Source: a virus (taxonomy: Duplodnaviria; Caudoviricetes). From it: a stretch of 64,000 nt of DNA. Location of the stretch: positions 161,757 to 225,756 of the IMG/VR virus record IMGVR_UViG_3300025389_000010. One strand, written 5' to 3'. The position numbers and the translations under genes are program-made. Below the pieces are notes generated by a model that made no database searches, was not told where the DNA came from, and saw only the letters and a list, made by a program, of their open reading frames with translations. Each line of letters opens with the position of its first letter. Positions within the stretch are counted from its first letter, which is position 1. Positions 29,147 to 49,594 of the stretch are shown in pieces.

Positions 29147-29212
29147 GTATACGCCCCCTTATATAGAAGGTATACCCCATACCCCACCCCTATATAGGGG
29201 GGCACTGCCCCC
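29147..29212. repeat. Cluster of short GC-clamped palindromes at the compositional boundary
   Basis: GGTATAC twice, CCTT-ATATAG-AAGG and the perfect CCCCTATATAGGGG (29187-29200). Confidence 0.6.
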
Positions 29213-29219
29213 AAACAAA

Positions 29220-29291
29220 CTTTGTTTTACAAATCGCCTAATAGCAAATTTTTGCAGATGGGGTCTGTTTTTACACTTTGTTTTACAAATC
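29220..29291. repeat. Two half-sites of the GATTTGTAAAACAAAG element
   Basis: CTTTGTTTTACAAATC at 29220-29235 and 29276-29291. Confidence 0.9.
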
Positions 29292-29324
29292 ACTCGATTT
29301 TTTTCCGACCCTGTGCAAAAAAAA

Positions 29325-29348
29325 ACCCGATCCATTTCTGGATCGGGT
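29325..29348 (-). terminator. Intrinsic terminator after the RHH gene
   Basis: ACCCGATCCA-GAAA-TGGATCGGGT followed by a T-tract on the minus strand. Confidence 0.85.
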
Positions 29349-29369
29349 CTTGTGTGAGGTGCTTCTGGC

Positions 29370-29588
29370 TTATGCCTTTGCCTTGGCCTTGGGCTTGGAA
29401 GCCTTGGGCTTCTCGGCAGGTGCAGGGGTGGCCTTGCTCTGGACATACTGACGGAGGACATGGACGATGAGCTTGGACAGGGTGACATCGAACATCTCGC
29501 CTTTGGCGATCTCTTCGAGGCTGGCCTTGAGTTCGTCCTCGCAACGGAAGGTGACCATTGAGGACTTCTGCTTGATTGTGGCTGACAT
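29370..29588 (-). CDS. Ribbon-helix-helix (CopG/Arc/MetJ-type) DNA-binding protein with a Lys/Ala/Pro tail
   Basis: MVTFRCEDELKASLEEIAKG...LSKLIVHVLRQYV fits the RHH strand-helix-helix pattern; alternative start at 29654. Confidence 0.75.
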   Translation of the reverse strand: MSATIKQKSSMVTFRCEDELKASLEEIAKGEMFDVTLSKLIVHVLRQYVQSKATPAPAEKPKASKPKAKAKA

Positions 29589-29660
29589 GGGCGTTTGTGT
29601 TTTTGGGTTACGGCAAGCGTGACCGGCGTTGTGCTGGTGCGTTCCGATTGCCATATTGAA

Positions 29661-29689
29661 AGACTAGTCTCGTGCCTTTCGTTGGTCAA
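29661..29689 (-). promoter_or_regulatory. sigma70-type promoter of the RHH gene
   Basis: TTGACC-17-TAGTCT preceded by A-tracts. Confidence 0.7.
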
Positions 29690-29800
29690 CGACTATTTTC
29701 GTTGCCCTTCACTTTTTTTCTAGGGTGCAAAGTCGGTGTGTGAAACGGGGTTGTATTTTTACAGGGTGTGGCATTACCGCAGAGGTTGGTTTTCAGGAAC

Positions 29801-29842
29801 GATTTGTAAAACAAAGAATGTTCAAACTTTGTTTTACAAATC
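29801..29842. repeat. 42-bp palindromic element, copy 1
   Basis: GATTTGTAAAACAAAG-AATGTTCAAA-CTTTGTTTTACAAATC. Confidence 0.95.
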
Positions 29843-29908
29843 GAAACCGGGCGGAGGGTCTGTGTTTCCCGGTTTCCCGGTTTGAGTCTTGACATCGAAG
29901 CAAAAGAA

Positions 29909-29938
29909 AATCCCCATCACCTTTCGATGATGGGGATT
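29909..29938 (-). terminator. GAAA-loop terminator of the repeated family
   Basis: AATCCCCATCA..GAAA..TGATGGGGATT plus T-tract. Confidence 0.8.
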
Positions 29939-29962
29939 ACCCGTTTGCCTTTTCTCTTCTGC

Positions 29963-30247
29963 CTATTCCTTCTCGTTCATCTCTCTCTGCATGAAGTTTA
30001 GAATATCCTCCATCCGGTCGGCGGCTTGGTTAGGGCAGTTCCGAACAAGGAAGCGACGGACTCGGCTGGCTACTTGATTGCCTCGGCCCATGATATTCTC
30101 TGACTTGAATTTCTTTTTGGGCTTGCCTTCGATGATGATCTCTAGGTCGGCTTGGTCAGGGCAACCTATGCCTTTCCACAGGGTGAGACTGACTGACCAT
30201 TGACCGGAGCAAAGGGCACGAACGGAGGATTGGGTGTATCGGTTCAT
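29963..30247 (-). CDS. Hypothetical early protein
   Basis: 94 aa; overlapping stop/start chain. Confidence 0.65.
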   Translation of the reverse strand: MNRYTQSSVRALCSGQWSVSLTLWKGIGCPDQADLEIIIEGKPKKKFKSENIMGRGNQVASRVRRFLVRNCPNQAADRMEDILNFMQREMNEKE

Positions 30248-30444
30248 AGGTAGGAACGGAGGATGTTGGCGATGATCTTTGTGTGCTGTGCCCTGCCGTG
30301 GGCTTTCATGTAGCTTTCGGTGTAGATGCCGATATCGGCTTTGTTAAGGTCGGAGAGTTTGATTGTGACTTCGTCCCTGTAGGCTGAAAGGGCTTTTATT
30401 AAAACGATGATGTCGTTTCGGGTTAGAGGAACATGGGACTTCAT
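30244..30444 (-). CDS. Hypothetical early protein
   Basis: 66 aa; ATGA overlap. Confidence 0.6.
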   Translation of the reverse strand: MKSHVPLTRNDIIVLIKALSAYRDEVTIKLSDLNKADIGIYTESYMKAHGRAQHTKIIANILRSYL

Positions 30445-30626
30445 AGCGTGTAGTATTTCGGGGAGCGGTCTTCCAGCATTCCTACTAGGAGGAGTGCTTT
30501 CTGTGCGGTGGCGACACGCTTGTTGCCAAGCTGGACGCTACCATCGGCGTATGCTGTGACATCCATCCTGTATCCCTTCTTGAGAAGGAGATTCCAAATG
30601 GCTTCTAGGTTTTGTTTTTGGCTCAT
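30441..30626 (-). CDS. Hypothetical early protein
   Basis: Start refined to MSQKQNLE, downstream of the TTGACC box at 30677-30682. Confidence 0.6.
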   Translation of the reverse strand: MSQKQNLEAIWNLLLKKGYRMDVTAYADGSVQLGNKRVATAQKALLLVGMLEDRSPKYYTL

Positions 30627-30709
30627 GGGATCTGCTGGTTGAAGCATTGGGATAAAAATATCACCGGCAAATCGTGGGTCAATACTTTTTTCTGATTTTT
30701 TTTGGGCCT

Positions 30710-30841
30710 CGCCGGTCGTCGATTTGTAAAACAAAGTTTGGTGGTTGGTTGTACTACATCGTTGGTTCGCCGGTCGAAGATGGGCTTTCGCCGGTCGTCG
30801 ATTTGTAAAACAAAGTTTTGTTCAATTTTGTTTTACAAATC
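30710..30841. repeat. Half-site (30721-30736) and full 42-bp palindrome (30800-30841), with three CGCCGGTCG repeats
   Basis: Read directly; the spacer is again 10 bp. Confidence 0.9.
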
Positions 30842-30894
30842 GGTGCGGGTTAGACCGGCGTGTAATACCTTGCCTTGCGTGTAGTACAAAAAAA

Positions 30895-30938
30895 TACAAT
30901 ACAATACAATACCTTATCTGATATTGTATTGTATTGTA
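30895..30938. repeat. 44-bp TACAA-repeat palindrome
   Basis: TACAATACAATACAATA-CCTTATCTGA-TATTGTATTGTATTGTA. Confidence 0.9.
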
Positions 30939-30960
30939 TGGAGTCGTACTCTTTGTATTA

Positions 30961-31605
30961 CTAGTGCTTACGATAGCTTATGGAGTAGATTTCGGGATTC
31001 CAACAAGCTCGGCAATCTTTGCACTCATTGTTCTGTTGTGGGGCAGGGCAGGTGAATGATGACTTGGACACACCGCTTGTGGGCAATCCTAGCCTTTCGG
31101 CTATGGCATCGGGTGCAGGGCCGTCAATCATGAGGGCAGAGAGACGGATCGTCAGGTTCTTTGGCTTCTCATAGGTTGCCATGTATTGTTCAACCATTGC
31201 ATATTCCCTAGTCGGAAGCCAAAAGGTGATGTGGGGCAGATTCTTTGCAATCTCGGCAATCTTTGCAAGGTGATCGACACTCTGGATGTCTCCACTATCA
31301 TGCCAGCGAAAGAATCCGCTTTTCTCCTTTCGGTTGATAAGCCATGTGAGAACGGATGTCCACCTATCACTCTGTAGTGATGCGAAACGCTGTTGCATTG
31401 CGTCACGGGTCGTCTTAAAAACATAGCGTCCCTTCATTGCATAGCAAACGGAACACACAGAGCCTTTGATGTTTCTCATCTTTTGCCCTATCTTGCAATA
31501 GACGGCAGGGATGGAATATCCGTGGCATGGCATCTTTGACGGATTGGACAAAGAGCCAACGATTGATTTTGCGATTTTGATTGTGAGTTTGGGTGTGGTA
31601 GTCAT
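30961..31605 (-). CDS. GP88-like phage protein (Cys cluster, radical-SAM-like)
   Basis: SKMPC..YSIPA..C..G......GSVCS.CYA.KGRY...FFRWHDSGD...WLPTRE; start refined to MTTTPK. Confidence 0.75.
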   Translation of the reverse strand: MTTTPKLTIKIAKSIVGSLSNPSKMPCHGYSIPAVYCKIGQKMRNIKGSVCSVCYAMKGRYVFKTTRDAMQQRFASLQSDRWTSVLTWLINRKEKSGFFRWHDSGDIQSVDHLAKIAEIAKNLPHITFWLPTREYAMVEQYMATYEKPKNLTIRLSALMIDGPAPDAIAERLGLPTSGVSKSSFTCPAPQQNNECKDCRACWNPEIYSISYRKH

Positions 31606-31693
31606 GGGACTTGAAGCATCGGATAGATCAAAAGGGATTGCAAGAACTATTTTCAACTTTTTTTTCGGTTGACTTTTCTTCGATTCGAGCATC

Positions 31694-31778
31694 GATTTGT
31701 AAAACAAAGAATGTTCAAACTTTGTTTTACAAATCGTTCCTGATTATCTCGATGGTTTCAAACTTTGTTTTACAAATC
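31694..31778. repeat. Full 42-bp palindrome (31694-31735) plus half-site (31763-31778) in a local tandem duplication
   Basis: Read directly. Confidence 0.9.
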
Positions 31779-31830
31779 GTCCCTGATTTTCTCGATGGTG
31801 GTGTTTCGTTGTTGGGTATGAAAACAAAAA

Positions 31831-31854
31831 ACCCACCACCTTTCGGTGATGGGT
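31831..31854 (-). terminator. GAAA-loop terminator
   Basis: ACCCATCACC-GAAA-GGTGGTGGGT plus T-tract. Confidence 0.8.
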
Positions 31855-31878
31855 CTTTGTCGGGGGGATTGGGGGAGT

Positions 31879-32094
31879 CTATGATCTCAAGTATGCGATA
31901 TCTTTGGCATGATACAGGGTCAGGGCATCTTCTTCTGTCAATCCGATAAACTCATAGGGATCGAAAAAGATTTCATCGGGATAGTATGTGAAGAGAACTT
32001 TGATAGATCCATCCTCAAAGGTCGCAATGACTTGGGGCATGGGATCAAAGGGATTCTCTGGCATCTTGGTGATCTTGCACTCAACGATTTTCAT
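31879..32094 (-). CDS. Conserved hypothetical protein
   Basis: MPQVIATFEDGS...YYPDEI.F...EFIGLT; start refined. Confidence 0.65.
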   Translation of the reverse strand: MKIVECKITKMPENPFDPMPQVIATFEDGSIKVLFTYYPDEIFFDPYEFIGLTEEDALTLYHAKDIAYLRS

Positions 32095-32176
32095 GGTATT
32101 TGATTTGTTGGGGATGCCTCCTGTCACTCACTCAAGTGACAGGAGGACTTTCCCATTGCCTTTCTCTACTACCTAC

Positions 32177-32719
32177 TCAAATGATTTCGATGTGGTCGCC
32201 TTTGGCAACGATGCCAGCGATGTGGGATGGGTCAAGTTTGAACTGGGCAAACTTGCTTCTCTTGAAGTTGCAAGCCTTTTCAATGTCCTTCTTGGCAAGG
32301 GTCAGGGGGCGAGAGTTGACAGGTGCTTTCGTAACCTTTGCGGGTTCGATGGTCTGCTTGTCGTGGACATATCCGTAGATGTAGATTTCGCCAGTTTCGG
32401 TATGCTGTTTGATGCCCTTGCCGATATTTTCAAAAGTCTCCTTCTGCGTGTAGGAGGAAGAGACTCCTTCTGTCAGGGTTTCGTTAAGGCTTTGGAGCAT
32501 TTCGTCCTTGGCTTGAATCTCTAGGTCATTCTTGGGGACATACGCCTCTAGGGTCTTCTTGTCATCGGCAACGGCAGAACGATAGTCAATGCCGAAGTTG
32601 ATGACATACTTGGAAGTCTCCTGCGTTCCCTTGGTCGTGTAGAGGAAGGAAACAAAGGTGCAACCATTCTCGGTCGCCTCACGGAGTTGATCGACTGCCT
32701 TGATCTTGATGTTTTGCAT
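32177..32719 (-). CDS. Hypothetical early protein
   Basis: Start refined to MQNIKIK after an AC-rich leader; promoter TTGACC-16-TAATCT at 32767-32794. Confidence 0.7.
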   Translation of the reverse strand: MQNIKIKAVDQLREATENGCTFVSFLYTTKGTQETSKYVINFGIDYRSAVADDKKTLEAYVPKNDLEIQAKDEMLQSLNETLTEGVSSSYTQKETFENIGKGIKQHTETGEIYIYGYVHDKQTIEPAKVTKAPVNSRPLTLAKKDIEKACNFKRSKFAQFKLDPSHIAGIVAKGDHIEII

Positions 32720-32854
32720 AGTAGGATTTGGTTTGGTTTTGGGTTGATGTCTTATCGACAAGGAAGAGATTACCACAACCACGCCACAGGTCAATGGGTT
32801 TTTTTCATTTTTTTTCTACTCTGAAAACCGAGCCACCGGCGTTCTTACGGTGAC

Positions 32855-32896
32855 GATTTGTAAAACAAAGTTTGAACATTCTTTGTTTTACAAATC
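32855..32896. repeat. 42-bp palindromic element with the spacer in reverse orientation
   Basis: GATTTGTAAAACAAAG-TTTGAACATT-CTTTGTTTTACAAATC. Confidence 0.95.
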
Positions 32897-32942
32897 ATGC
32901 CCGTGCAAATAATAAAAAATTCGCTTGACATCCAGAAAATGA

Positions 32943-32976
32943 AAAACCCCACCACCCTTTCGGATGATGGGGTTTT
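32943..32976 (-). terminator. GAAA-loop terminator, identical to 44025-44058
   Basis: AAAACCCCACCACCCTTTCGGATGATGGGGTTT. Confidence 0.85.
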
Positions 32977-32998
32977 CCCAGTTTCCCTTTCTTCTACC

Positions 32999-33478
32999 TT
33001 ACACAAATGCTAGTCCAAGGGTCTTCATCTTGAAGCTCTCAATCTCGTCCCTAATCGCCATCCTCTGACGGAACAGGGCCATCTCTTCTTTTTGGAGAGC
33101 TTCCAGCTTGGCTTTCTTTTCAGCCTCAAACTCTGCCACCTTCTCCAGCTTCTTGAAGCGGTCAAAGAGGTTACGGCACTTCTGGATTGCCTTCACCTTT
33201 TCGGAATCGGTGACAAGGTTGGGATAATCGCCAGAAATTTGACGACCAGCAAGGATATGCTCGACAGCACTCTCCATGTTCTCAAAATAGCACTTGCCCA
33301 CTCCGTAGACATCGGACTCCGTTGTGAACTTTCCAGTTCGTATGAAGGTGTGATAATTGCTCCTACGATAGATCAACTCCCATCCTTTTGCTTCGATCTC
33401 GACAGGGCATACTCGCAGTTCGGTGATCCAGTTAAAAATCTGGACTCCGTATGACTTGAACTTCGGCGGTGTTTTCAT
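32999..33478 (-). CDS. Hypothetical early protein
   Basis: Start refined to MKTPPKF after an AC-rich leader. Confidence 0.65.
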   Translation of the reverse strand: MKTPPKFKSYGVQIFNWITELRVCPVEIEAKGWELIYRRSNYHTFIRTGKFTTESDVYGVGKCYFENMESAVEHILAGRQISGDYPNLVTDSEKVKAIQKCRNLFDRFKKLEKVAEFEAEKKAKLEALQKEEMALFRQRMAIRDEIESFKMKTLGLAFV

Positions 33479-33516
33479 TGTGTGTGTGTGTTGGTGTTTG
33501 GGTTTTGGGTTGGTTC

Positions 33517-33708
33517 TCACTTCTGCATAGTGTCGCAGTAGACTTGAAAGGACAGGTTGCCCTTCAAGTAACCACTTATGGCTACGCATTGGTGAATCGG
33601 ATAGCCAAGATCCTCGGCTAGAGTCATGAGTTTCCAGTATGAAAACTTTTTGGCAAGCCTTTTCGCATCGGTCAGGTTGCCGTTCATGAGATTTTCGATA
33701 GCGTTCAT
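33517..33708 (-). CDS. Hypothetical early protein
   Basis: Start refined to MNAIENL; promoter TTGCAT-16-TAGCTT ending at 33773. Confidence 0.6.
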   Translation of the reverse strand: MNAIENLMNGNLTDAKRLAKKFSYWKLMTLAEDLGYPIHQCVAISGYLKGNLSFQVYCDTMQK

Positions 33709-33811
33709 TGTATGATAGATAGTGTGGGTTGGGTGTGCGGGTATGAAGCTATCAACAAAAATCGGGTATGCAAGAACTTTTTTCAACTTTTTTTGGGCCT
33801 CCGAATTCCCC

Positions 33812-33922
33812 GATTTGTAAAACAAAGTTTTGTCCTACAATATCTTATCCTACAATGTTTTCATGCCTTCGCCCGGTGACGATTTGTAAAACAAAGTTTG
33901 GTTTAATATTGTTTTACAAATC
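33812..33922. repeat. Half-site (33812-33827) and full palindrome (33881-33922)
   Basis: Read directly; the right arm starts TATTGT. Confidence 0.9.
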
Positions 33923-33924
33923 GA

Positions 33925-34810
33925 CTACCGTTGAGCCGTGCGTATTACCTTGCAATACTTACAATGCAATATAAGACAATACATTACAATACCTTCACTT
34001 ATAAGACAATACAATATAACGAATTGTATCGTAATATCCTACAACTTTTTACTTTACAATTCCTTTGAAATCTACTTGGGAATCATTTCTTTCAATTCCT
34101 TTGAAAGATTCCCCTACAATCATTCCCCAATACCTTCCCAATATCCCTGTATCTGTATTGGTAATACCCTTGGGCAATATCCCTTTGGCCCTTCGGGGCC
34201 AATATGTATTGCCAATTCCCTTGCCCAAACCTTTGTCCCTACTATTGCCTCGTGCCTATCAATACATTCCCAATTTATTTCCAATATCTTCCCAATACTA
34301 TTTCCAATACATTGTCAATACATTTATTTCTTTATATTTTATTGTATTGCCTTGACTTTTGTCTTCCTTATGATCCTTGTATCGTTATGTCTTTTCGTAT
34401 CGTCATGCACACAATCCCCCCAATCTTGTTGTGAGGTAGCACCCTGTTGCAATTTTACACGGTGTTGCATTAAAACAGAGTTTGCCATTGTCAATACATT
34501 GTATTTTTATAGGTAAAACATTGCCCTATAATACCATACCTTGTATTCGCTATGATCTTGGTAGCACATTTTAATACATTGTCAATACTTTTCTTACAAA
34601 AAATTACATTGTAAAGTGAGTGTAATAAGAATATCTTACCAATGTTTGTTACAATGTTTGCCACAATGTAATAAGAATATCTTCCCAATGTTTGTTACAA
34701 TGTAATAAGAATCTCTTCCCAATGTTTGCCACAATGTAATAAGAATATCTTACCAATGTTTGCCTCAATCTCTTCTCAATGTTTGCCACAATGTAGCAAG
34801 AATCTATTTC
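33925..34810. repeat. Non-coding CAAT-rich block with 34-bp tandem repeats (candidate origin/iteron region)
   Basis: TGTAATAAGAATATCTT(A/C)CCAATGTTTG(TT/CC)ACAA at 34621, 34667, 34701 and 34735, plus a degenerate copy; G-poor plus strand; no credible ORF. Confidence 0.7.
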
Positions 34811-35337
34811 CAATTAAATCTTATGTAGTCTTTTATTGTATTGCTATTTCCTACTCTGTAAATATATTTGATACGCTTCAAGGGTTTGTTGAATCCCATG
34901 TCATAGATGGTTCCGTTGACTACTGCAAAGGCATGATCTCTGGTTACTGCTATGTATCTTCCCCTGTAATAGTCCATGAGCATTGCCCTTATTGTGAGTC
35001 CTTTCTTTGGGAGTATGTATTGGATCTGGTATCCTTCTGTCTTTATTAGGGTTTCCACTATCTTGTGTGTCCAGAATCCTTCGTTGTCTTTCCTTCCTGC
35101 TTGCCTTGCATAATCATGTGCTTTCTTGTATGGTAGTCTTAATGCTACTGCTATTGCCATGACTGTGCAGTTGTTGGTGTCTATGATCCTGTCCTTTGAT
35201 GCTCCTCCGTCTGTTATTATCGTTTTGGCCTTTATGAAACTTTCGTGTGCTTTCAAGAGAAGAGTTCCTTTATGGTTAGAATTAAGCATCCTACATAGTA
35301 TTGTAGTAGTGGTTGTTCTCTTACAATGCAGAACCAT
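34804..35337 (-). CDS. Conserved phage protein with papain-like Cys-His-Asp spacing (tentative)
   Basis: NNCTVMAIAVA...DHAFAVVNG.IYD. Confidence 0.55.
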   Translation of the reverse strand: MVLHCKRTTTTTILCRMLNSNHKGTLLLKAHESFIKAKTIITDGGASKDRIIDTNNCTVMAIAVALRLPYKKAHDYARQAGRKDNEGFWTHKIVETLIKTEGYQIQYILPKKGLTIRAMLMDYYRGRYIAVTRDHAFAVVNGTIYDMGFNKPLKRIKYIYRVGNSNTIKDYIRFNWK

Positions 35338-35681
35338 TCACCGTTTGGAGCCTTGTTCATTATCATTCCGTTCTTGAAGCGTAGGTAGATTTCTGATTCC
35401 TCGTTACAGGTTGGGCAGATTCCTTTCCTTATGACATTGACTCCTTTATTGCCATAGGTTGCATTGACTTCTAGGTTTGTGGGTATTGGTAGTCCTTGGT
35501 TTTCGCAGTTATCGTTTATGCAGGATATGGGTTCCTCTTCAAAGTCTTTTCTCATTTCGTCTTCATCGTATGTAGTCTCATGTTGTGATATATCATACAA
35601 TTCGTGCATCCTTTCCTCTGTTAATACCCTGTAATGGGTTGTAAAAAATACTCTTAATGCGGTAAATGGATCTATTCTCAT
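35253..35681 (-). CDS. Zn-ribbon protein
   Basis: CINDNC...CPTC. Confidence 0.6.
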   Translation of the reverse strand: MRIDPFTALRVFFTTHYRVLTEERMHELYDISQHETTYDEDEMRKDFEEEPISCINDNCENQGLPIPTNLEVNATYGNKGVNVIRKGICPTCNEESEIYLRFKNGMIMNKAPNGEWFCIVREQPLLQYYVGCLILTIKELFS

Positions 35682-35827
35682 GGTGTATAACCTGTTATTT
35701 TGTTGTAATTCCTTATTTTACTCTGTTAGCCTATAATTTTTCTTGTATTTTTATAGTATTTTTTCTCCATTTTGCCCCACTTTGGCCCACTTTTTGAAAC
35801 TTTTTCTTATATTTTTGGGCATTTTTA

Positions 35828-36058
35828 TCAGGGATATTGATGAATAATCTTGTCATTCATCATCTGTAATATGGAATACTTTGTAAGTTTTTTCCTACCT
35901 GCATTTCTTTGTTGCTGGTATTGTTGGTCGAGTGCTTCCCTTGCTTCTTCCAGAGTATCGAAATAGTAGAGTTGTGTATCCTCATCGACCTTGTTGCCGA
36001 AATAGGTATTTGTCCATTTTCCTCTGCTCCACCATTGGATATGATACAATGTTTTCAT
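35828..36058 (-). CDS. Hypothetical protein
   Basis: Start refined to MKTLYHIQ (ATGA overlap). Confidence 0.6.
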   Translation of the reverse strand: MKTLYHIQWWSRGKWTNTYFGNKVDEDTQLYYFDTLEEAREALDQQYQQQRNAGRKKLTKYSILQMMNDKIIHQYP

Positions 36059-36645
36059 ACCAGTTCTGGATGATCTTTCTTGGTCTTGGTATAGTCTGAC
36101 CACACTTGTAGGTCAAGTTTGGCGGGTGTCATGCCTCTGTTTTCTGCTTCCATCAGGAACCATCTTTCGATTTCGGGGTAGCGTTTCTTGCTTGGGGTTG
36201 CCTTTGGGACATCGTATCCAAGGAACTTCATCCACTTCAAAATATGGGTATCAAGGACTGCTACCTTGGTGTTGGGTCTGGAATGAAGGACAAAGAATCT
36301 TGCTGTCTTGCTTCCTATTCCAGAGATGCTTTCCAGTTCTTCTATGGTAACAGTCTTGAGTCTTCCCTTGAACTGAAGGATCTCCTTGAAGGCATGACCG
36401 ATCCTCTTATATTGTCCTAACTTGAACTCTCTCATGTGGATCTCTAGCCAATTATTCTTGATGAGAAATTCAAGATGATCGAAAGGCTTGCCTATCTGTT
36501 CCCACATACAACGCTTGAGAAACTCGTCGAGCTTCTTTGCCTGTTGCTCTGCTCCCTTTCCTGCCACAAGGATAGCGAACATTAGGAACTCTTCCAACTC
36601 CTCCTCTGTCCTGTTGAAGTTGGTGATGGTCTTTGGGGTTATCAT
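36055..36645 (-). CDS. HhH-GPD superfamily DNA N-glycosylase/lyase (Ogg/EndoIII-like)
   Basis: HhH motif LESISGIGSKTARFF with catalytic Lys, followed by VLDTHI with catalytic Asp. Confidence 0.8.
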   Translation of the reverse strand: MITPKTITNFNRTEEELEEFLMFAILVAGKGAEQQAKKLDEFLKRCMWEQIGKPFDHLEFLIKNNWLEIHMREFKLGQYKRIGHAFKEILQFKGRLKTVTIEELESISGIGSKTARFFVLHSRPNTKVAVLDTHILKWMKFLGYDVPKATPSKKRYPEIERWFLMEAENRGMTPAKLDLQVWSDYTKTKKDHPELV

Positions 36646-36656
36646 TGTATTACTTC

Positions 36657-36809: not shown

Positions 36810-36943
36810 TAGAAGAGATGGATGAAGTAGTTGATAGTGGTAGCGATTAGCATGATGACACAAACCAGCATCATAAATGCAAGGAAGGCAATCAAGGGTA
36901 AAAGTGCTTCAGCTTCGATTTCAATTTTCATTGTAGGATATTT

Positions 36944-42460: not shown

Positions 42461-42670
42461 TCATTTGTCAAATGGTGTGGAGTAAGACCAAGAAGGTTCT
42501 GCTTTTACCTTGAAGAACATTCCGATCAACGGAAGGTTCGGGTGAGTTTGGAGTTTGACCCTGTAATCGGCATAAGCCCACAGGAATGATGCAACGAATC
42601 CCATCGCTAGGATGATGTTGACTCTGGTTGTGTATCTTCTGGATCTGATTATTGTTCTTGCTGATTTCAT
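42461..42670 (-). CDS. Small membrane protein
   Basis: One TM helix. Confidence 0.5.
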   Translation of the reverse strand: MKSARTIIRSRRYTTRVNIILAMGFVASFLWAYADYRVKLQTHPNLPLIGMFFKVKAEPSWSYSTPFDK

Positions 42671-42892
42671 AGTGGGCCGAATTTATTGTAGTAACAAATG
42701 ATTACAAAGAGTAACAGGAAAGTGAGTAAGGTCATGTGGTTGTAATACGATATTGATTCTTCAATCCTGCCATTGTATCCCAAAGGGTGAAGGTGTCAAT
42801 CCTATTCTGTGCTTCTTTTTGGGAATCGGACTGAACATTGTTGATGCTCACCCACTTCTTCAACGATGTGTTAAAGTATTCGACAATGTATT

Positions 42893-43114
42893 TCATTCGA
42901 TTTCGTAAATGTGAGTGCTGGTCGTTGTCTGCTTGATGCGATAGAAGTTGGAGATGTGAACTCCTGCTTCGTTGTCTGGATCGTTGCGATAGAGGTGTCT
43001 TGCTCCTTCTTCTGCATCCTCTCTGTTCTCATAAGTCAGGGAATATCTGTCAGACCACTTCCTACGATTATAGACTTCGATAGTGAAGACGGTTTGTGTC
43101 TCGGTGTTAGTCAT
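42893..43114 (-). CDS. Hypothetical protein
   Basis: Start refined to MTNTET. Confidence 0.55.
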   Translation of the reverse strand: MTNTETQTVFTIEVYNRRKWSDRYSLTYENREDAEEGARHLYRNDPDNEAGVHISNFYRIKQTTTSTHIYEIE

Positions 43115-43370
43115 GGTAAATGTGTGCCGTGATCTCGTTGGCTTGCGTGTCGAATGTGATCCTAGTAGCAAACCCTCTCATAATGCAATGAGGTTGTTTC
43201 TTCTGTGCATGACTCTCAATATAGGGAACCTTGATCTTGACATGGTTGACCATGTGGCAAGCACCTTCCCAATGCACGGTCATGACATTACGACCCTGCT
43301 TCCTTGCCTCTGCCTTGTTGTAGTGGTAGAAGAATCTCTTGGGTTTGACTGCAATGATATTGTTTTTCAT
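43107..43370 (-). CDS. Conserved phage hypothetical protein
   Basis: FFYHYNK...MTVHW.G.CH...QP.C.MRG; start refined to MKNNII. Confidence 0.6.
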   Translation of the reverse strand: MKNNIIAVKPKRFFYHYNKAEARKQGRNVMTVHWEGACHMVNHVKIKVPYIESHAQKKQPHCIMRGFATRITFDTQANEITAHIYHD

Positions 43371-43374
43371 TGTA

Positions 43375-43578
43375 TTATTCCTCGTAGGGGATGTCACTTG
43401 CAATTTCATACACATTCCACAGGTCTTTGTTGAGAGTGTGAGAATACTCAAGCGGTTCGTCGGGTGTGCCAGTAGTGGCATACTTGTTCTCGGCAATTTC
43501 GATTGCCTCTTCGGGACTCTCTGCCTCGACATACATCGTGGCATAATGAACTTCAGGGATGCTTACGCTATATTTCAT
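43375..43578 (-). CDS. DpnD/PcfM-like small protein
   Basis: MKYSV.I.E......VEAES.EEA.E.AE. Confidence 0.6.
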   Translation of the reverse strand: MKYSVSIPEVHYATMYVEAESPEEAIEIAENKYATTGTPDEPLEYSHTLNKDLWNVYEIASDIPYEE

Positions 43579-43865
43579 TTTGCTTTGGTTGGTTTGGTTA
43601 TGGAGACTTTAGCTTTGCAGAGATCCTTGCTCTGGTCAATCGTTTTTTTCTCTTTTGCGATTCTTTTTTTTCTACGAGTGATAGCCTTGGAAACTTCCTT
43701 TATGATGTCGGGTTTGAGATAACTGTCATTGCTTGTATCAATATGTGTGTCAAGAGGATTGCCACTCATTGTAGTATAATCGGTTACATAGATTTTGGCC
43801 TTGTCATGCTTCATGATATAGACCTCCCTTATGATAATGTCCTTCGTGTATTGCAGGATTCTCAT
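43575..43865 (-). CDS. Hypothetical protein
   Basis: 96 aa; TTGCAT-16-TACGAT-6 nt-ATG. Confidence 0.6.
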   Translation of the reverse strand: MRILQYTKDIIIREVYIMKHDKAKIYVTDYTTMSGNPLDTHIDTSNDSYLKPDIIKEVSKAITRRKKRIAKEKKTIDQSKDLCKAKVSITKPTKAK

Positions 43866-43945
43866 ACCCTGATCGTATCATCATCGTGTATGGATGCAAC
43901 AACTTTTTTTGAAAACATTGTAATACGCCTCCGTTGCCGGGTGAC

Positions 43946-43987
43946 GATTTGTAAAACAAAGTTTTAATATTCTTTGTTTTACAAATA
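43946..43987. repeat. 42-bp palindromic element
   Basis: GATTTGTAAAACAAAG-TTTTAATATT-CTTTGTTTTACAAATA. Confidence 0.9.
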
Positions 43988-44024
43988 TCGCAGCGGGAAG
44001 GTTCGGTGGTCGGATCTGAAAACG

Positions 44025-44058
44025 AAAAACCCCACCACCCTTTCGGATGATGGGGTTT
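44025..44058 (-). terminator. GAAA-loop terminator after the tRNA cluster
   Basis: Identical to the hairpin at 32943-32976. Confidence 0.85.
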
Positions 44059-44104
44059 CCCATGAACAGGATCTTACTTCATGTAAGACCCTTACCAACA
44101 AAGT

Positions 44105-44180
44105 TGGTGGGATCGTCGGGACTCGAACCCGAAACCAATTCGTTAAAAGCGAACTGCTCTACCGATTGAGCTACGATCCC
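44105..44180 (-). tRNA. trnK: tRNA-Lys(UUU)
   Basis: 76-nt cloverleaf, loop CT-TTT-AA, encoded CCA. Confidence 0.95.
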
Positions 44181-44207
44181 TAAAGTCATTTTTGTTTCGT
44201 TGATTGT

Positions 44208-44282
44208 TGGTGCATCCAGTAGGAATCGAACCTACATATAGGCTTTAGAAGAGCCTTGTCCTATCCGTTGAACGATGGATGC
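44208..44282 (-). tRNA. trnR: tRNA-Arg(UCU)
   Basis: 75-nt cloverleaf, loop CT-TCT-AA, encoded CCA. Confidence 0.95.
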
Positions 44283-44293
44283 TTTATTAAGGT

Positions 44294-44388
44294 TGGAAGT
44301 GGCGGAGGGAATCGAACCCTCGCTAATCCCACATCTAGGGAAGTTATAGGTATAAACTATATCGTGCTTCCAATTACACTACGCCACC
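44294..44388 (-). tRNA. Atypical long-variable-arm tRNA with UAU anticodon (nominal Ile; identity uncertain)
   Basis: 95 nt; acceptor GGTGGCG/CGCCACT-T-CCA; stem TATAG/CTATA around TT-TAT-AC; about 23-nt variable region with a TCCC/GGGA stem; T-loop TTCGATT. Confidence 0.75.
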
Positions 44389-44397
44389 TTGTAAGTT

Positions 44398-45717
44398 TTA
44401 GTCCTCCTTGGTTTGAGTTGCCTTCTTGAAGAAGTTCCTCAAGGCATTAAGGACAGTCGTTGTATCCTGCTTCTTCTTGATGAAGCGACCCTTCTCGTCC
44501 CTGACATTGTGATATGCCGTGGGTGTCGGTGTAGGCTTGCTGGTGTTCTGGTTTTCGTGGCAACCACATTGACCTCCGCAACATCCATCGTTGCCCTTAT
44601 TGCCTACCTCATCTTCCTCGGTGTAGGTGTATCCACACTTCTTGTCGAGGTAGTCGGTCAAGGTTGGTTCCTCATTCGTGGTCTTGCCAGCACATCCTCC
44701 TCCGTAGCAACCAGAGTATTCATCGTCGTAGCAGTTATCACAAAGGTCGTCACCATTGCCGTTGTAGTTCTCGTTATTGAGTTCCAACTTGCAGGAACAG
44801 CAATTACCAAGTCCTTCATCGTCATCGTCATCCTTGCACAGATAGCAAAGATTATCTCCGTTGCCATCATAGGTTTTTTTGTTCAAGAATCCTCCACAAT
44901 TATCGCAGGTATCATCGTTGTCATTGTCCTCATACTCTCCACCATCGGAGGAGTAGAGATCAGAGTCGAACCCATTCTCTCCACGATCCAGTTTGCTCCT
45001 CCAATCGTCGGTGTATTCAGCAACAACCTCATAGCGACAGGTGCGACCCTTGGTGTTGTTGTAGTCGGCAGGGATCGCCACAACATCCTTGGGATTGATC
45101 TTAACAATCATCGTATGACCTCCGCTTGAATCCCTGAAGTGAGGGAGGTATGCAATCGAACAGAAGTGCAGACCATAGGAGCAAGTGCGATCCTTGTCCT
45201 CATCGACACGATTGCGAGGCATCTCACAGACCTTGCCAACGGAGTTGTCGAACTTCCCACTATGAATGTCCTTGTAATCTGCCTTGACATTCTTGTAGGC
45301 AAGGAAGCAACCATCCTCGGTGATCGGGAGTTCCCCAACCTCAAGGAAGTCGTAGAGTTCATCTACTGCTCTCTTGGAAGGATTCTGCATGAGGTTCTCC
45401 AAGAACTTCACAAGAGGCTCAAACGGAAGATCCTGCTGAACAAAGCTAATGATCCTCTTGGTGAGAGTATTATGGAGTTCTTCATCGTTATACACAAGGA
45501 TGCCGTCCTTAATGGAAATACCATGTGAGAGGTAGGCATTGAGTTGACGAGAGACATCGACATACTCCACGAACTTGTGCCAGAATCCGTTCTTCACGGC
45601 ATCCAGCAGGATGTGGTAGTTGGGATGGTCGGTGTCAATCGCATAGGACTGACCGTTGACAAATGCGGCGATCTTTCCAGATCCCGTAATTGTGACTGCG
45701 TTGTTGGTGGTGTTCAT
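44398..45717 (-). CDS. rIIB: RIIB-like protein with a Cys-rich acidic C-terminal extension
   Basis: PITEDGCFLAYK...MPRNRVD...CSYGLH...KINPKDVVAIP.DY...KGR.CRYEVV; follows rIIA. Confidence 0.85.
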   Translation of the reverse strand: MNTTNNAVTITGSGKIAAFVNGQSYAIDTDHPNYHILLDAVKNGFWHKFVEYVDVSRQLNAYLSHGISIKDGILVYNDEELHNTLTKRIISFVQQDLPFEPLVKFLENLMQNPSKRAVDELYDFLEVGELPITEDGCFLAYKNVKADYKDIHSGKFDNSVGKVCEMPRNRVDEDKDRTCSYGLHFCSIAYLPHFRDSSGGHTMIVKINPKDVVAIPADYNNTKGRTCRYEVVAEYTDDWRSKLDRGENGFDSDLYSSDGGEYEDNDNDDTCDNCGGFLNKKTYDGNGDNLCYLCKDDDDDEGLGNCCSCKLELNNENYNGNGDDLCDNCYDDEYSGCYGGGCAGKTTNEEPTLTDYLDKKCGYTYTEEDEVGNKGNDGCCGGQCGCHENQNTSKPTPTPTAYHNVRDEKGRFIKKKQDTTTVLNALRNFFKKATQTKED

Positions 45718-45727
45718 AGCGTTAATG

Positions 45728-45755
45728 ATCTTATCAGGGTTTTGCTCGGTGTCAA
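45728..45755 (-). promoter_or_regulatory. sigma70-type promoter of rIIB
   Basis: TTGACA-16-TAAGAT. Confidence 0.7.
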
Positions 45756-45770
45756 TACGATTTCTTTGTA

Positions 45771-47795
45771 TTACTTGAGATTTTCTACAAGCAGGAGAAC
45801 TTCGTCAATCGACCAGTTATAGGTTCCAATCCTTGACAAGAGCAAGGAGATTGCCTTGTTAGACCCTGCATACTTGATCGGTGTGTTGGAACGAAACGAG
45901 TGACCCTCAAAGAGCAAATGGTCAATACTCCGATACTTGTAATACTTATCCATGCACTCGTTGACCTTGTTGACAAAGACCTTGAACTCGTTGTCCTTGG
46001 CAAGTGACATGAACTTGCTGTGCTTTACAATGTTCTGAATTGTCGATTGGTTGTAGTGATAGCAAGTTGCAAGACCTTCTTTGTCAATGTCGATCTTGAT
46101 GTTGTCGTTGATCCATTTGATAAAATCAACACAAGTGGCAGGAAGGTTCTTGACATTGTTCTCGGAAACCATGACCACATCCTTTTCGGTAAGTTCCATG
46201 AACTGCATGACCCGATACAGGTCACTCTTGTTGGCAATAAACTTTTGCAGACCCTTGATCGGGAAGTTGATGTCGTAGTTTTCCTTGGGTTTGACAAGGT
46301 AAAACTTTGGAGTCTGTGCATCGAATACCTCGGCATCCCAACCCTTCTTGTCGAGATCACCAAGATAATAAAGGTTGAACTGACCCTTGACCCTTTGCGT
46401 GGTCGTGGTCGTGCGACCCTTGCGTGATGCAGGGATGGGTTTGGGCAGACTGCTCACAGGCAGGAATGATTCCTTGGGGAACCCATTGGCAATCATCTTG
46501 TCGTATGCCTTACTTGAGAATACACAAATCTTGGTGTCCTCGTTAGACCTGACATGATGCCTGACACGAGAGATGCCACCCTTGATGTCATCATGGTAAT
46601 ACCATGTGATATTACGACCCATCTGGACATTGTGACTCTCGTTGATCTTGGTTCTGTAATACGAAGGCTTGCTGTATGTAATGCAAGGTATGGGATCGTC
46701 GGAAATGTGGTTGACCACATTAGCCTTGATGATCTCCCTGATGAAACCGTATGGATCGGAAATGTCCATGCCCTTCCACATGAGTTTGTCGATCTTCATA
46801 CCTTGTATGAAAGCGAACTGGTTGTGCAGGGTATAGACCATGTGCAAGGCATCGTAGATGTTTGTCTTCTCGGCAAGCATCTCGGTCAACCTCTTCTTGA
46901 AGTCCTCTTGAACCATTGCCAACTTGTCGTTGAGTGCCTTGATGGTTGCAGGACAATATGAGATAGACTCACGACTTGGAGTGAAATCAATCTCACCCAT
47001 CTTGAAGTGCAGGACAAGGTTTGCTTTGTAAAGCATATCCCGATACTTGCCGTCGAGCTTATAGGAGTTAATGGGATAGTTGACTCCTCCCATGATGGCA
47101 AAGCTACCATTCCAATCCTTCTTGCTATCGGCATAGCTTTCCCATCCATCGCCCTTGAACATGGGTGATTCAATGTTCCACTCGATCTTACCTCCCGTGA
47201 TGGTAGGCTTAACAGAGAAGAAACGAAATGCCTTGAAGGTTGCCGTCTTGAAGTCCTCAAAGTCACTTGCCTTGACAGGGATCTTGATGGCAACTCCGTT
47301 CTCCTCGGTCGTGTTCTCGGTAGATACCAGAGCAATGGCAGGAGTGTTGTGTTGGTTGAAGAAGGCATTGTATGTCCTCTTCACACCCTCATGGATACTC
47401 GTCACGGTGAAGGCATCGGTGTAGCAGAAAGGAGACTTGCTACCAAGACCAAGGCATCCAACTTGGTCATCGGTGTTGGTCTTTGTGCTTTCAAAGTATG
47501 TCGCATAGATATTGTAGATGTTCTCATGCGAGATGCCGGTTCCGTAGTCTTGAATGGTGATCCAAGGCTCAAGTGTATTGGGCAGATGAATGTGGAAGGG
47601 ACGATCCTTCTTACCAGATGCAACCATGCTATCGCTTGCATTGCATCCCAACTCACGCACGATGGCGAGAGGCTTATCGGAGTAGAGGTCAGAAAGAATC
47701 TGAAAAGCCTTGCGGCTTGACTTCATCTTGAACTCGTTCTCCTGTGTCACTTGTCCGATCTGCTCGACTGTGTTGGTGTTCTCTATCAGTTTCAT
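45771..47795 (-). CDS. rIIA: RIIA-like protein (GHKL ATPase N-terminus)
   Basis: LYSDK..AIVREL..NA.DS, IQDYGTGIS, STK...DQVGCLGLGSKSPF. Confidence 0.85.
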   Translation of the reverse strand: MKLIENTNTVEQIGQVTQENEFKMKSSRKAFQILSDLYSDKPLAIVRELGCNASDSMVASGKKDRPFHIHLPNTLEPWITIQDYGTGISHENIYNIYATYFESTKTNTDDQVGCLGLGSKSPFCYTDAFTVTSIHEGVKRTYNAFFNQHNTPAIALVSTENTTEENGVAIKIPVKASDFEDFKTATFKAFRFFSVKPTITGGKIEWNIESPMFKGDGWESYADSKKDWNGSFAIMGGVNYPINSYKLDGKYRDMLYKANLVLHFKMGEIDFTPSRESISYCPATIKALNDKLAMVQEDFKKRLTEMLAEKTNIYDALHMVYTLHNQFAFIQGMKIDKLMWKGMDISDPYGFIREIIKANVVNHISDDPIPCITYSKPSYYRTKINESHNVQMGRNITWYYHDDIKGGISRVRHHVRSNEDTKICVFSSKAYDKMIANGFPKESFLPVSSLPKPIPASRKGRTTTTTQRVKGQFNLYYLGDLDKKGWDAEVFDAQTPKFYLVKPKENYDINFPIKGLQKFIANKSDLYRVMQFMELTEKDVVMVSENNVKNLPATCVDFIKWINDNIKIDIDKEGLATCYHYNQSTIQNIVKHSKFMSLAKDNEFKVFVNKVNECMDKYYKYRSIDHLLFEGHSFRSNTPIKYAGSNKAISLLLSRIGTYNWSIDEVLLLVENLK

Positions 47796-47837
47796 GGGTG
47801 TTGGTGTTTATGGGTTGGTGTCGTATTGACAAGGGAC

Positions 47838-47865
47838 AATCTATACGATGGATCACCCGTGTCAA
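47838..47865 (-). promoter_or_regulatory. sigma70-type promoter of rIIA
   Basis: TTGACA-16-TAGATT with upstream A-tracts. Confidence 0.7.
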
Positions 47866-47927
47866 AACTTTTTTCGGTGTCCGAAACTTTTTTTATTTTT
47901 CCGTTGACAAGATACTTTGTATGATAG

Positions 47928-48003
47928 TGGTAGATGTGGTGAGACTCGAACTCACACTTGACGGATTTTAAGTCCGTTGCCTCTGCCGTTGGGCTACACA
48001 TCC
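47928..48003 (-). tRNA. trnL: tRNA-Leu(UAA) with a short variable loop
   Basis: 76 nt; loop CT-TAA-AA; 5-nt variable loop; A73; encoded CCA. Confidence 0.9.
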
Positions 48004-48021
48004 ATACTATGTAAAACTTAT

Positions 48022-48198
48022 TTACTCGTTGTCGTCATATTCTCCATCACTCTCGTCTCTCTCAAAACGAGAAGCATAAAGACCTTCATGCCTTCTGGCA
48101 TACAAGATACTCTCTTGCCATTCCTGTTCATCGAAATCATCCATGACTCTTGTGCATCCGTATCTGTCATCATCTAGGTTGAACGAGTATGTATTCAT
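48022..48198 (-). CDS. Small acidic protein (58 aa, not in the ORF track)
   Basis: MNTYSFNLDDDRYGC... Confidence 0.5.
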   Translation of the reverse strand: MNTYSFNLDDDRYGCTRVMDDFDEQEWQESILYARRHEGLYASRFERDESDGEYDDNE

Positions 48199-48223
48199 GT
48201 TTATATGGGGATATTATACGAAA

Positions 48224-48418
48224 TTATTGTTCGGTCAAGCACTTTTTGATGTATGCCTTCAAAATAGGAACTGCTCTCATGTGCTTATGGAAGATATATG
48301 AGTCTTTACCGTTAGGGTGAAGGACAATGTATTTGTTCTTTCTAATGAGAACACGCAGTCCTGCTCTCTGTGCGTTCTTGATCTCGGCATCGAACTCCTT
48401 GCAATGGTGGTTAGGCAT
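48224..48418 (-). CDS. Small basic protein (HicA-like dsRBD fold possible)
   Basis: G..V.IRKNKYIVLHPNG....FH pattern. Confidence 0.4.
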   Translation of the reverse strand: MPNHHCKEFDAEIKNAQRAGLRVLIRKNKYIVLHPNGKDSYIFHKHMRAVPILKAYIKKCLTEQ

Positions 48419-48550
48419 AGGTGTAGGTTGGTTAGGTATGGGTTGAGGAACATGAGACTAGCAGAAGCAGGAATCCGATCAAGCAAATTTTTCATGCACA
48501 ACAATGTTTTTTTTGTTGTTCTTTGTAATACGCCCCCGTCGCCGGGTGAC

Positions 48551-48592
48551 GATTTGTAAAACAAAGTTTTGTTTAATTTTGTATTACAATAC
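48551..48592. repeat. Degenerate 42-bp palindromic element, last copy
   Basis: GATTTGTAAAACAAAG-TTTTGTTTAA-TTTTGTATTACAATAC. Confidence 0.85.
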
Positions 48593-48681
48593 AATACATT
48601 ACAATATTTTATATTATATTGTATTGTTTTATAATGTAATACTTTATATTGTTTTATAATGTATTACCTTAACTAATAAAG

Positions 48682-48718
48682 AAACTCCCAATGAAACTTG
48701 ACATTCCATTGGGAGTTT
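48682..48718 (-). terminator. 12-bp hairpin, probable terminator, with a plus-strand TTGACA in its loop
   Basis: AAACTCCCAATG/CATTGGGAGTTT; TTGACA(48698)-17-TATTAT(48721). Confidence 0.6.
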
Positions 48719-48744
48719 AGTATTATCCTAACTTTACGATGATC

Positions 48745-48993
48745 TTACTTACTTCTGCGACAAGCGAAGCGACCCTTCTTGTCACGAAGATTGTGGAACT
48801 TGGGCATCAGGCGAACCATACTACCATTGGCATCGAATCCCTTGAAGCTATAACGATCAAAGTTGATCGTCTTCTCAAGAACCTGCATCTTAATTACACG
48901 AGGAGTATTGCGATTGCAAAGACCATTGGTGATCTTATTGAGGCTATACTTGATCTCGTTCATCGTGTTGTTGTCGGTGGTGTTGTTTTTCAT
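48745..48993 (-). CDS. Small basic hypothetical protein
   Basis: 82 aa; ends HNLRDKKGRF. Confidence 0.6.
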   Translation of the reverse strand: MKNNTTDNNTMNEIKYSLNKITNGLCNRNTPRVIKMQVLEKTINFDRYSFKGFDANGSMVRLMPKFHNLRDKKGRFACRRSK

Positions 48994-49594
48994 AACTCCA
49001 CTACTCTAGTCTTTAATGATGCCGGTGTCAAAATAAAATTTCTCCAACAGAGTAAAAAAGTTGTTTTCCGCCCACCCTCATACACACATCAACGCTACAC
49101 TATGCTGTATTTTAACATAGTGCGTCATTACGGCACACTTTACTCTGGTAGACACTATTGCCCCGCATTTCCTTGACTTTTGGAAACATTTCTGGTAATG
49201 TTATATTCATGATTAAGTTGTTAGGTGACAGGATTTCAACAACAAAAGCAACCAATGATGCACAATTAACAACAACCACAAGCAATGTTGTACAATATAT
49301 TGTATAACAATAACAAACAAATTATAACATATCAATACATTGTAAATACTTAAAATACAACAACATACAATATTGAGCATTGTCAAACATGTAAACTATT
49401 TGACTACAATGTTTTACAAAAAAACCTATAAGTTTTTTTGTTTTGAATGAATATAAAAAATAATTATATTTTAGATATAAATATAAGAACTAAAATAAAT
49501 TATAAAAACAAAAAGTTTTTATTTGTCCCAAATATACATGGATATAAACCATGTGAGAAACATACCTGAAACATTTATGAAAGCAAAAATTAAA

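Follow-up and report, generated by a model that had tools for sequence, protein, structure and literature searches.

The last 64 kb of the virus record IMGVR_UViG_3300025389_000010 (record positions 161,757-225,756; hereafter the window, 64,000 nucleotides, whose own coordinates are used unless genome positions are stated) contains a block of about 20 kb with a base composition unlike that of the remaining genome. This raises the question of why an AT-rich phage should keep one such region, and how its composition relates to the transfer RNA (tRNA) genes inside it. The record comprises 225,756 bp at 32.0% G+C (GC) and is rated 100% complete by CheckV, and our own family searches, which found rIIA, rIIB, a T4-type major head protein and a gp32-like single-stranded DNA-binding protein (SSB), fit a T4-like affiliation. 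The block, which we refer to as the island, lies on the minus strand at 29150..48700 (19,551 nt) and holds about 44 minus-strand open reading frames (ORFs), five tRNA genes and one plus-strand HNH gene. It is led by rIIA and rIIB; the remainder consists of about 40 small ORFs, most ORFs being shorter than 150 amino acids and few having family matches. The explanation we favor, with slightly more than even confidence, is that the island is an rII-led block of early type whose codon dialect was selected by expression on unmodified host machinery.

The GC content is 43.1% in the island and 30.9% in the rest of the genome, and 1-kb windows of at least 42% GC account for 13 of 19 in the island against 2 of 206 outside it. 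The contrast is larger at third codon positions, where the codon-weighted GC (GC3) is 0.54 in the island and 0.19 outside, with per-gene medians of 0.50 and 0.20 (Mann-Whitney p = 3e-25) and a GC3 of at most 0.32 in every other 5-kb bin of the genome. GC at first and second codon positions differs by only about 0.03, so the excess is synonymous. ORFs were called as longest ORFs combined with GC3 periodicity; short ORFs and the "spacer" statistics given below are therefore approximate. An earlier sequence-only reading of the window had described a GC-rich block of about 20 kb with nearly all genes on the minus strand, and both features are borne out, 44 of 45 ORFs being on that strand with the HNH endonuclease gene as the sole exception. 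Its GC range for the flanks, 17-37%, also agrees with the 60-nt lines there (median 28%, interquartile range 23-35%), whereas its 47-52% for the island was slightly high (median 43%, interquartile range 38-48%).

The codons that distinguish the island are those that its own tRNAs read. As fractions of their synonymous families, AAA falls from 0.79 elsewhere to 0.37 in the island, AGA from 0.71 to 0.29, TTA from 0.47 to 0.07 and ATA from 0.43 to 0.18. Summed, the four codons make up 62 per 1000 codons in the island and 152 per 1000 outside it (15.2% of outside codons), so the enrichment outside the block that the sequence-only reading called for is present. The avoidance is stronger still in rIIA and rIIB taken together (AAA 0.10, AGA 0.06, TTA 0.00, ATA 0.04), whose GC3 values of 0.62 and 0.59 are among the island's highest. 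In a principal component analysis of relative synonymous codon usage over 181 genes, the first axis accounts for 28% of the variance, and its strongest negative loadings are TTA, AGA, ATA and AAA, which are precisely those that the island tRNAs read; of the six codons that come next, five (TCA, ACA, GGT, GAA and AAT) are read by other tRNAs of the phage.

The five tRNAs, previously assigned to AAA, AGA, UUA and AUA with two candidates for the last, are all recovered by ARAGORN and Infernal, with the anticodons UUU, UCU, UAA, UAU and CAU. All lie on the minus strand: tRNA-Lys(UUU), reading AAA, at 44105..44180; tRNA-Arg(UCU), reading AGA, at 44208..44282; a tRNA with anticodon UAU, reading AUA, at 44294..44388 (95 nt, long variable arm); a tRNA with anticodon CAU at 40409..40483; and a tRNA with anticodon UAA, reading UUA, at 47928..48003 (76 nt, short variable arm, 62 bits in Infernal). 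The CAU tRNA as a second AUA reader is plausible but unproven. It is not initiator-like, because G1-C72 is paired, and would be either an elongator Met tRNA or, plausibly, a lysidine-type Ile2 tRNA. The genome encodes 17 tRNAs in all, the other 12 being clustered at genome 154.6-161.7 kb in ordinary AT-rich DNA just before the window; the island set complements these 12, and CAU is the only duplicate. In the CAU tRNA of the main cluster (genome 161671-161746) positions 1 and 72 are mismatched (A x C, and U x U in relatives G001 and G005), as is also typical of bacterial initiator tRNAs, whereas island CAU tRNAs are paired there.

Two of the island tRNAs have unusual forms. A long variable arm (91-95 nt overall) and a discriminator base other than A set the UAU tRNA apart, and the long-arm form is kept in all four whole relatives that we compared (see below). 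The UAA tRNA is short-armed at 76 nt both here and in relative G005 (190100-190175), and the homologous tRNA-Leu(UAA) of G001 (36105-36188) and G002 (32636-32722) is 84-87 nt long with the usual long arm; in the island tRNA, apparently of Leu type, the class II arm seems to have been lost. Reassignment of AUA or UUA by such odd tRNAs was considered and rejected using 296 orthologue alignments. In these, the residues opposite ATA are I in 39.5%, L in 16.9% and V in 16.8% of cases, much as for ATT and ATC; opposite TTA, L makes up 61%, a share like that for TTG and CTT. Since both codons align like their synonyms, the standard meaning holds.

The order of genes and signals places the tRNAs for the four codons within the rII transcription units. 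The rIIA homologue (45771..47795, minus strand, 674 amino acids; PHROG 612, E = 1.9e-119) is preceded by a sigma70-like promoter match at 47838..47865 (TTGACA-16-TAGATT), and the rIIB homologue (44398..45717, minus strand, 439 amino acids; PHROG 609, E = 1.1e-80) by another at 45728..45755 (TTGACA-16-TAAGAT, with TG), both on the minus strand. tRNA(UAU) starts 9 nt past the rIIB stop codon, with tRNA-Arg(UCU) and tRNA-Lys(UUU) behind it; the terminator, a minus-strand hairpin with a T-run at 44018..44061 that was read from the sequence, comes after all three and closes the rIIB-tRNA unit. This arrangement implies that the tRNA trio would be co-transcribed with rIIB. Repeat family D10 comprises three copies, this terminator among them, and two of the three score as terminator-like. 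The UAA tRNA sits just upstream of the rIIA promoter, after a TTGACC-16-TAATAT match and a 51-amino-acid ORF.

Across the island, sigma70 promoters, which had been claimed for almost all of its genes, are enriched but modestly so. The consensus is matched 50 times, where shuffles give 39.3 +/- 5.3, and a stringent match within 120 nt upstream precedes only 6 of 45 ORFs, rIIA and rIIB among them. Of the matches scoring at least 10/12, 11 of 16 are on the minus (gene) strand. Terminator-like hairpins number 24 against 17.2 +/- 4.4 expected, four of the five best-scoring ones lying within the block and in the orientation of its genes. The T4 late motif TATAAATA occurs genome-wide at its chance expectation as estimated from composition, and we therefore used only its position upstream of genes; no T4-type late motif was found upstream of island ORFs, although chance predicts only about 1.5 in the island. 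At the right edge, an AT-rich (17% GC) divergent control region at 48595..48738, with promoter matches on both strands, lies where the block begins when read in the direction of transcription. By analogy with T4, we infer that the block is probably transcribed by host RNA polymerase early in infection.

The island also carries a repeated element of its own. A 14-nt half-site, TTTGTAAAACAAAG, occurs in 16 copies between 29220 and 48553, mostly paired as 42-44-bp dyads, and these reach both island edges; it was found neither elsewhere in the 226 kb of the genome nor in the relatives. Because the half-site is confined to the island from edge to edge, the block also looks like one regulatory unit, and the half-site itself looks like a candidate operator for a lineage-specific regulator. 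A weak Arc-like ORF is located at 29370..29654.

Is the composition of the block a property of this one record? A chimera assembled from two genomes would produce abrupt compositional edges, and the left edge is indeed sharp, the island ending against a plus-strand HNH/NUMOD4 endonuclease gene (28628..29146; PHROG 59, E = 1.5e-48; Pfam NUMOD4 and HNH_3). Searched by megablast, neither the island nor the left flank matched any of 50,697 phage records, and tblastn against the same records gave only distant rIIA homologues, all below 60% and about 30-41% identical over part of the protein; the phage thus appears to have no cultured close relative among these records. An alignment-based scan of IMG/VR with rIIA yielded 34 loci, where a single-protein scan had given none. 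The rIIA homologues in metagenomes show graded identities from 94% (then 73% and 72%) down to about 44%, and rIIB is 65-71% identical in five relatives over the matched N-terminal part. Four whole relatives were compared, two of them closed by direct terminal repeats. Each shares 100-123 reciprocal-best orthologues with the phage at a median amino-acid identity of 44-54%, and the relatives are 46-61% identical among themselves; being equally distant from one another, they leave silent sites saturated in every comparison.

Each of the four relatives has one island of 15-24 kb starting at rIIA, with a GC3 of 0.40-0.50 against 0.17-0.20 elsewhere and with the four codons at 65-84 per 1000 inside and 155-167 outside. 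Furthermore, of the 20 clade loci with both flanks sampled and an rIIA identity of at least 42%, 16 have GC climbing by no less than 5 points where rIIA starts; in rII-bearing phages with less than 40% rIIA identity this rise is absent. The recurrence of the same architecture in independently assembled relatives, two of them closed genomes, together with the fact that single contigs of the relatives carry orthologues of genes to the left and to the right of the island, excludes mis-assembly for practical purposes, and we regard the chance of a chimera as negligible.

The tRNAs are conserved along with the composition. The tRNA genes that lie no more than a few kb from rIIA and rIIB at about 20 clade loci belong nearly always to the set Leu(UAA), Arg(UCU), Lys(UUU), Ile(UAU) and CAU, and are placed right after rIIB or just upstream of rIIA. 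The suggestion that the module carries only tRNAs for A-ending codons thus stands for a conserved core set but not as a strict rule, since Asn(GUU), Cys(GCA) and Thr(UGU) occur occasionally in relatives. The GC3 of rIIA is 0.56-0.62 in four lineages and 0.39 in a fifth. This last value belongs to the weakest island, in a relative with only 6 tRNAs that lacks UAA, UCU and UUU; although a single case, it fits a smaller mismatch with the host.

Foreign DNA, too, would be expected to differ in composition from its surroundings, to carry homing endonuclease genes (here at the left edge and within the island) and to turn over its small ORFs rapidly. Its donors would be phages or bacteria of higher GC, which could have contributed the block in a single ancient transfer, or the lineage could still be drawing on a shared pool of GC-rich early cassettes. 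Indeed, only 3-6 of the roughly 44 island ORFs have orthologues in any one relative, compared with 94-119 orthologues outside the island, and the homologues of island ORFs in relatives are mostly GC3-rich too. However, the vertically inherited rIIA and rIIB keep a high GC3 in five lineages, where an old import would have decayed to the AT-rich background, and a one-off import is largely refuted by the rIIA values of 0.56-0.62 in four lineages despite saturated silent sites. Nor does foreign origin sit well with an island found at the same place in 4 of 4 whole relatives and 16 of 20 contigs, with tRNAs that complement the other 12, with a half-site unique to the island from edge to edge, or with the avoidance of the same four codons by genes outside it. 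We consider foreign origin very unlikely. The retention of GC3 in rIIA and rIIB at saturated silent sites instead points to two compartments with different equilibria and to a force acting now, and the dialect appears to be actively maintained rather than the fading trace of a gene transfer.

What, then, is the force? Codon usage in this genome follows promoter class. The four codons rise from 62 per 1000 in the island to 108 in other genes with sigma70-like promoters and 154 in genes with the late motif, while GC3 falls from 0.54 to 0.29 and 0.19; this gradient indicates that codon usage tracks promoter class genome-wide, with the island as the extreme. Outside the island, the highest GC3 belongs to the major capsid protein (0.40), the gp32-like SSB and a Ro60-like protein. 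Their genes avoid AAA, ATA and TTA and use AGA below the bulk level, and their four-fold sites are T-rich like the genome; the capsid orthologues of all four whole relatives show the same avoidance. Codon avoidance combined with T-rich four-fold sites is not explicable by composition but is explicable by translational selection, and on this codon evidence the four codons appear to be poorly translated in the host. We infer that the host is of higher GC and that translation is the selective agent.

The avoidance in the capsid gene also bears on what the tRNAs are for. They had been proposed to supply the AT-rich structural genes, and this would hold for the bulk of the genome and for the very large virion genes but, because the capsid gene avoids the four codons, not for structural genes in general.

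The temporal codon-usage switch put forward in the sequence-only reading is supported in part, and several observations count against translational selection as a full account of the island. That the capsid gene avoids the four codons means that late translation does not simply favor them. With a codon adaptation index (CAI) referenced to the phage's own capsid, SSB and Ro60-like genes, the median is 0.54 in the island, 0.56 in the bulk and 0.62 in a second small-gene block; within-class codon choices in the island are only weakly better than a GC3-preserving null (z = 2.4). At four-fold sites the island prefers C and tolerates G, whereas highly expressed genes prefer T and avoid G, and the island also tolerates CTA, CGA and AGG. 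Its non-coding DNA has a GC content of 0.387, compared with 0.311 in the second small-gene block and 0.236 in the remainder. The second block keeps an ordinary GC3 of 0.22-0.31 despite its denser consensus promoters. Finally, the AT-rich HNH gene inside the island (39747..40442, plus strand; PHROG 2255, E = 3e-32) has a GC3 of 0.27, compared with 0.10-0.11 in homologues that sit outside the islands of relatives. A separate idea, that the island is simply highly expressed, is rejected by its CAI, which is no higher than that of the bulk.

The second block spans genome 217.5-225.7 kb plus 1-7 kb (window 55.7-64 kb plus the start of the record) and contains about 40 small minus-strand ORFs. No other part of the genome has consensus promoters of sigma70 type at such density (16 strict TTGACA-N16-18-TANNNT matches). 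In codon usage the block falls in between, with AAA at 0.60, TTA at 0.27 and ATA at 0.24.

These observations could instead reflect selection on the nucleic acid itself, in which the DNA or RNA expressed first must not look AT-rich and the codon effects are a side product; possible reasons include escape from AT-silencing host proteins or AU-preferring nucleases, or the limiting of spurious host-polymerase binding. Such selection would account for non-coding DNA that is 8-15 points GC-richer in the island than elsewhere, for the rise of G-ending four-fold codons that highly expressed genes avoid, for a CAI that is not raised, for island edges that are the limits of transcription units, and for an opposite-strand HNH gene somewhat GC-richer than its homologues elsewhere. 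However, the rise at third positions is three to four times that in spacers, and the sense strand favors C over G. Among AT-ending codons alone, TTA and AGA are avoided in the island as they are in highly expressed genes. Furthermore, a 1.2-kb ORF-poor block and the dyad elements stay AT-rich within the island, and the second sigma70-type block is AT-rich. As the principal cause, selection on the nucleic acid seems to us unlikely, if worth keeping in view.

A regional neutral process, such as GC-biased repair or gene conversion at a recombination hot spot, or another local mutation bias acting on weakly constrained sites, would likewise raise non-coding GC, and it would suit the fast gene turnover noted above. 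GC-biased conversion is not known to occur in phages, which counts against it, as does the slight enrichment of the other small-gene cassette block. Neither the strong asymmetry of C over G nor the specific avoidance of TTA and AGA is predicted by such a process, and the island still harbors its AT-rich HNH gene and an AT-rich non-coding block. The dispersed repeats and terminator-promoter cassettes do resemble the recombining PeSL cassettes of T4-type phages, as outlined in the abstract of PMC2839356. We judge this process decidedly doubtful as the cause.

Part of the shift has a cause other than translation, since the island's non-coding DNA is enriched in GC too. Our reading is that two signals are superimposed: a codon-specific avoidance, best explained by translation, and a block-wide rise in G+C that, judged from the spacers, is perhaps a quarter to a third of the effect. 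The block-wide rise could stem from selection on the nucleic acid, from biased repair where recombination is frequent, or from small ORFs in the "spacers" that went unrecognised.

In the account that we favor, expression on unmodified host machinery, the block would be the phage's own rIIA-rIIB-led region of small, fast-turnover accessory genes, written in a second codon dialect that is G/C-rich at silent sites and nearly free of TTA, AGA, ATA and AAA. The most likely cause would be selection for translation before the phage tRNAs exist, in a host that is slow on these four codons. The four-codon tRNAs, lying in the same transcription units, would accumulate as a by-product of the first transcripts and would then serve the AT-rich remainder, in which the four codons make up 15% of the total. 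A further step, which we put forward tentatively and think unlikely to be right, is a translational timer: AT-rich genes would be poorly translated in a GC-richer host until tRNAs from the rII transcripts build up, giving a post-transcriptional switch from early to late. The logic would be comparable to that of stop-codon recoding, which delays late genes in other phages, and would here apply clade-wide in uncultured jumbo phages.

A full-length transfer-messenger RNA (tmRNA) gene lies at window 12952-13403 on the minus strand (Rfam RF00023, 93 bits) and has a long insertion in the tag region. Among bacteria that carry its 5' 20-mer, its best overall matches are Verrucomicrobiota, with genomes of 53-59% GC; the 20-mer is present in many phyla, and a Verrucomicrobiota host is the sole lead, and a weak one. 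The bilin-phage paper PMC11480375 holds no host information for the clade.

Other genes and elements of the island include, on the minus strand, a GP88-family protein of 248 amino acids (30961..31707; Pfam PF17338, E = 1.4e-28), an Ogg/HhH-like glycosylase of 196 amino acids (36055..36645; Pfam PF22175, E = 3.6e-7; PHROG 11575, E = 1e-50) and a DUF1281_C-containing protein of 206 amino acids (41634..42254; Pfam PF18406, E = 5.6e-7). The ORFs are interrupted by the 1.2-kb ORF-poor block mentioned above (33590..34810, GC 0.27-0.37), which carries 34-bp tandem repeats; the 34-bp unit is present in six tandem copies at window 34606-34844, in an AT-richer mid-island stretch, and the array may be an origin or another protein-binding array. 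In an intergenic gap on the gene strand (window 39167-39236, minus strand) we found a sub-threshold, full-length match to the type-P1 twister ribozyme (43.7 bits against a gathering score of 67.2; E = 7.8e-7 over 21 kb). In this copy CUC/GAG replaces the consensus CCC/GGG, which could be compensated pairing, and a search of three relatives' islands gave no comparable hit. Divergent from the island's right edge, behind an 11/12 match to the sigma70 consensus, a plus-strand gene at window 48739-49176 encodes 145 amino acids; it avoids the four codons as highly expressed genes do, has a moderate GC3 of 0.38, and gave no family match.

T4 itself encodes tRNAs that include ones for UUA, AGA and AUA. 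In T4, codon usage has been linked to the time of expression (Cowe and Sharp, 1991, as cited in PMC3152331; a comparative study is PMC5683454), and the present phage is alike in being of T4 type with early and late genes that differ in synonymous codon use. It differs in that the contrast is a compact block, with GC3 at 0.54 against 0.19, rather than a statistical tendency; in that the four-codon tRNAs are embedded in rII transcription units; and in that phages throughout a clade without cultured members keep the layout, for which early expression is probable. T4-like cyanomyoviruses follow an "adaptation" strategy, in which an AT-rich genome brings tRNAs with AT-rich anticodons into GC-rich hosts (Limor-Waisberg et al., 2011, PMC3152331), and our phage resembles them in its low-GC myovirus genome and in its mostly U34 tRNAs that match its own codons. 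That study contrasts whole genomes, podoviruses matching the host and myoviruses bringing tRNAs, whereas here both solutions appear in one genome, divided by region.

The island also resembles the hyperplastic regions and PeSL cassettes of T4-type phages, in which, according to the abstract of Arbiol et al. (2010, PMC2839356), small dispensable genes share one strand and are accompanied by sigma70-like promoters and stem-loop terminators. The likeness extends to the small one-strand ORFs, to rIIA and rIIB at the head, and to a gene content that differs strongly between relatives. A distinct base composition is not mentioned in that abstract, and the present block is distinguished as well by its lineage-specific 42-44-bp dyad and its modest promoter enrichment. 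Heterogeneity of GC3 at the scale of blocks is known in phage genomes, for example between the two halves of lambda (Lucks et al., 2008, PMC2266997). There, high host adaptation tracks structural genes, and the capsid gene here has a GC3 of 0.40; the extreme block, however, is the early-type accessory region, which does not follow the high-expression dialect. For Shigella phage Sf14, tRNAs have been proposed computationally to help late-gene translation (PMC12482277); in that case the host is known and tRNA adaptation indices were computed, and the abstract mentions no GC-rich early block.

Set beside these systems, the case is an extreme example of a known phage strategy and not a new kind of system. 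What the case adds is a contrast of this size, kept across the clade even though silent sites are saturated; embedded tRNAs whose codons are exactly the avoided ones; a gene order that implies co-transcription; and evidence that translation does not explain all of the GC rise. Time-dependent codon usage is an old idea, and the value of the island lies in the strength and conservation of the case. If the account is true, one large phage uses two solutions to host codon mismatch in a single genome: the genes expressed first need no phage tRNAs, and the rest rely on imported tRNAs delivered by the first transcripts. The GC3 step at rIIA would then provide a compositional marker for the early region in uncultured T4-like phages, and the island would offer a clue for host prediction, as its composition and the tRNA count should track host GC. 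Furthermore, the island would be a natural system for separating translational selection from selection at the nucleic-acid level on silent sites.

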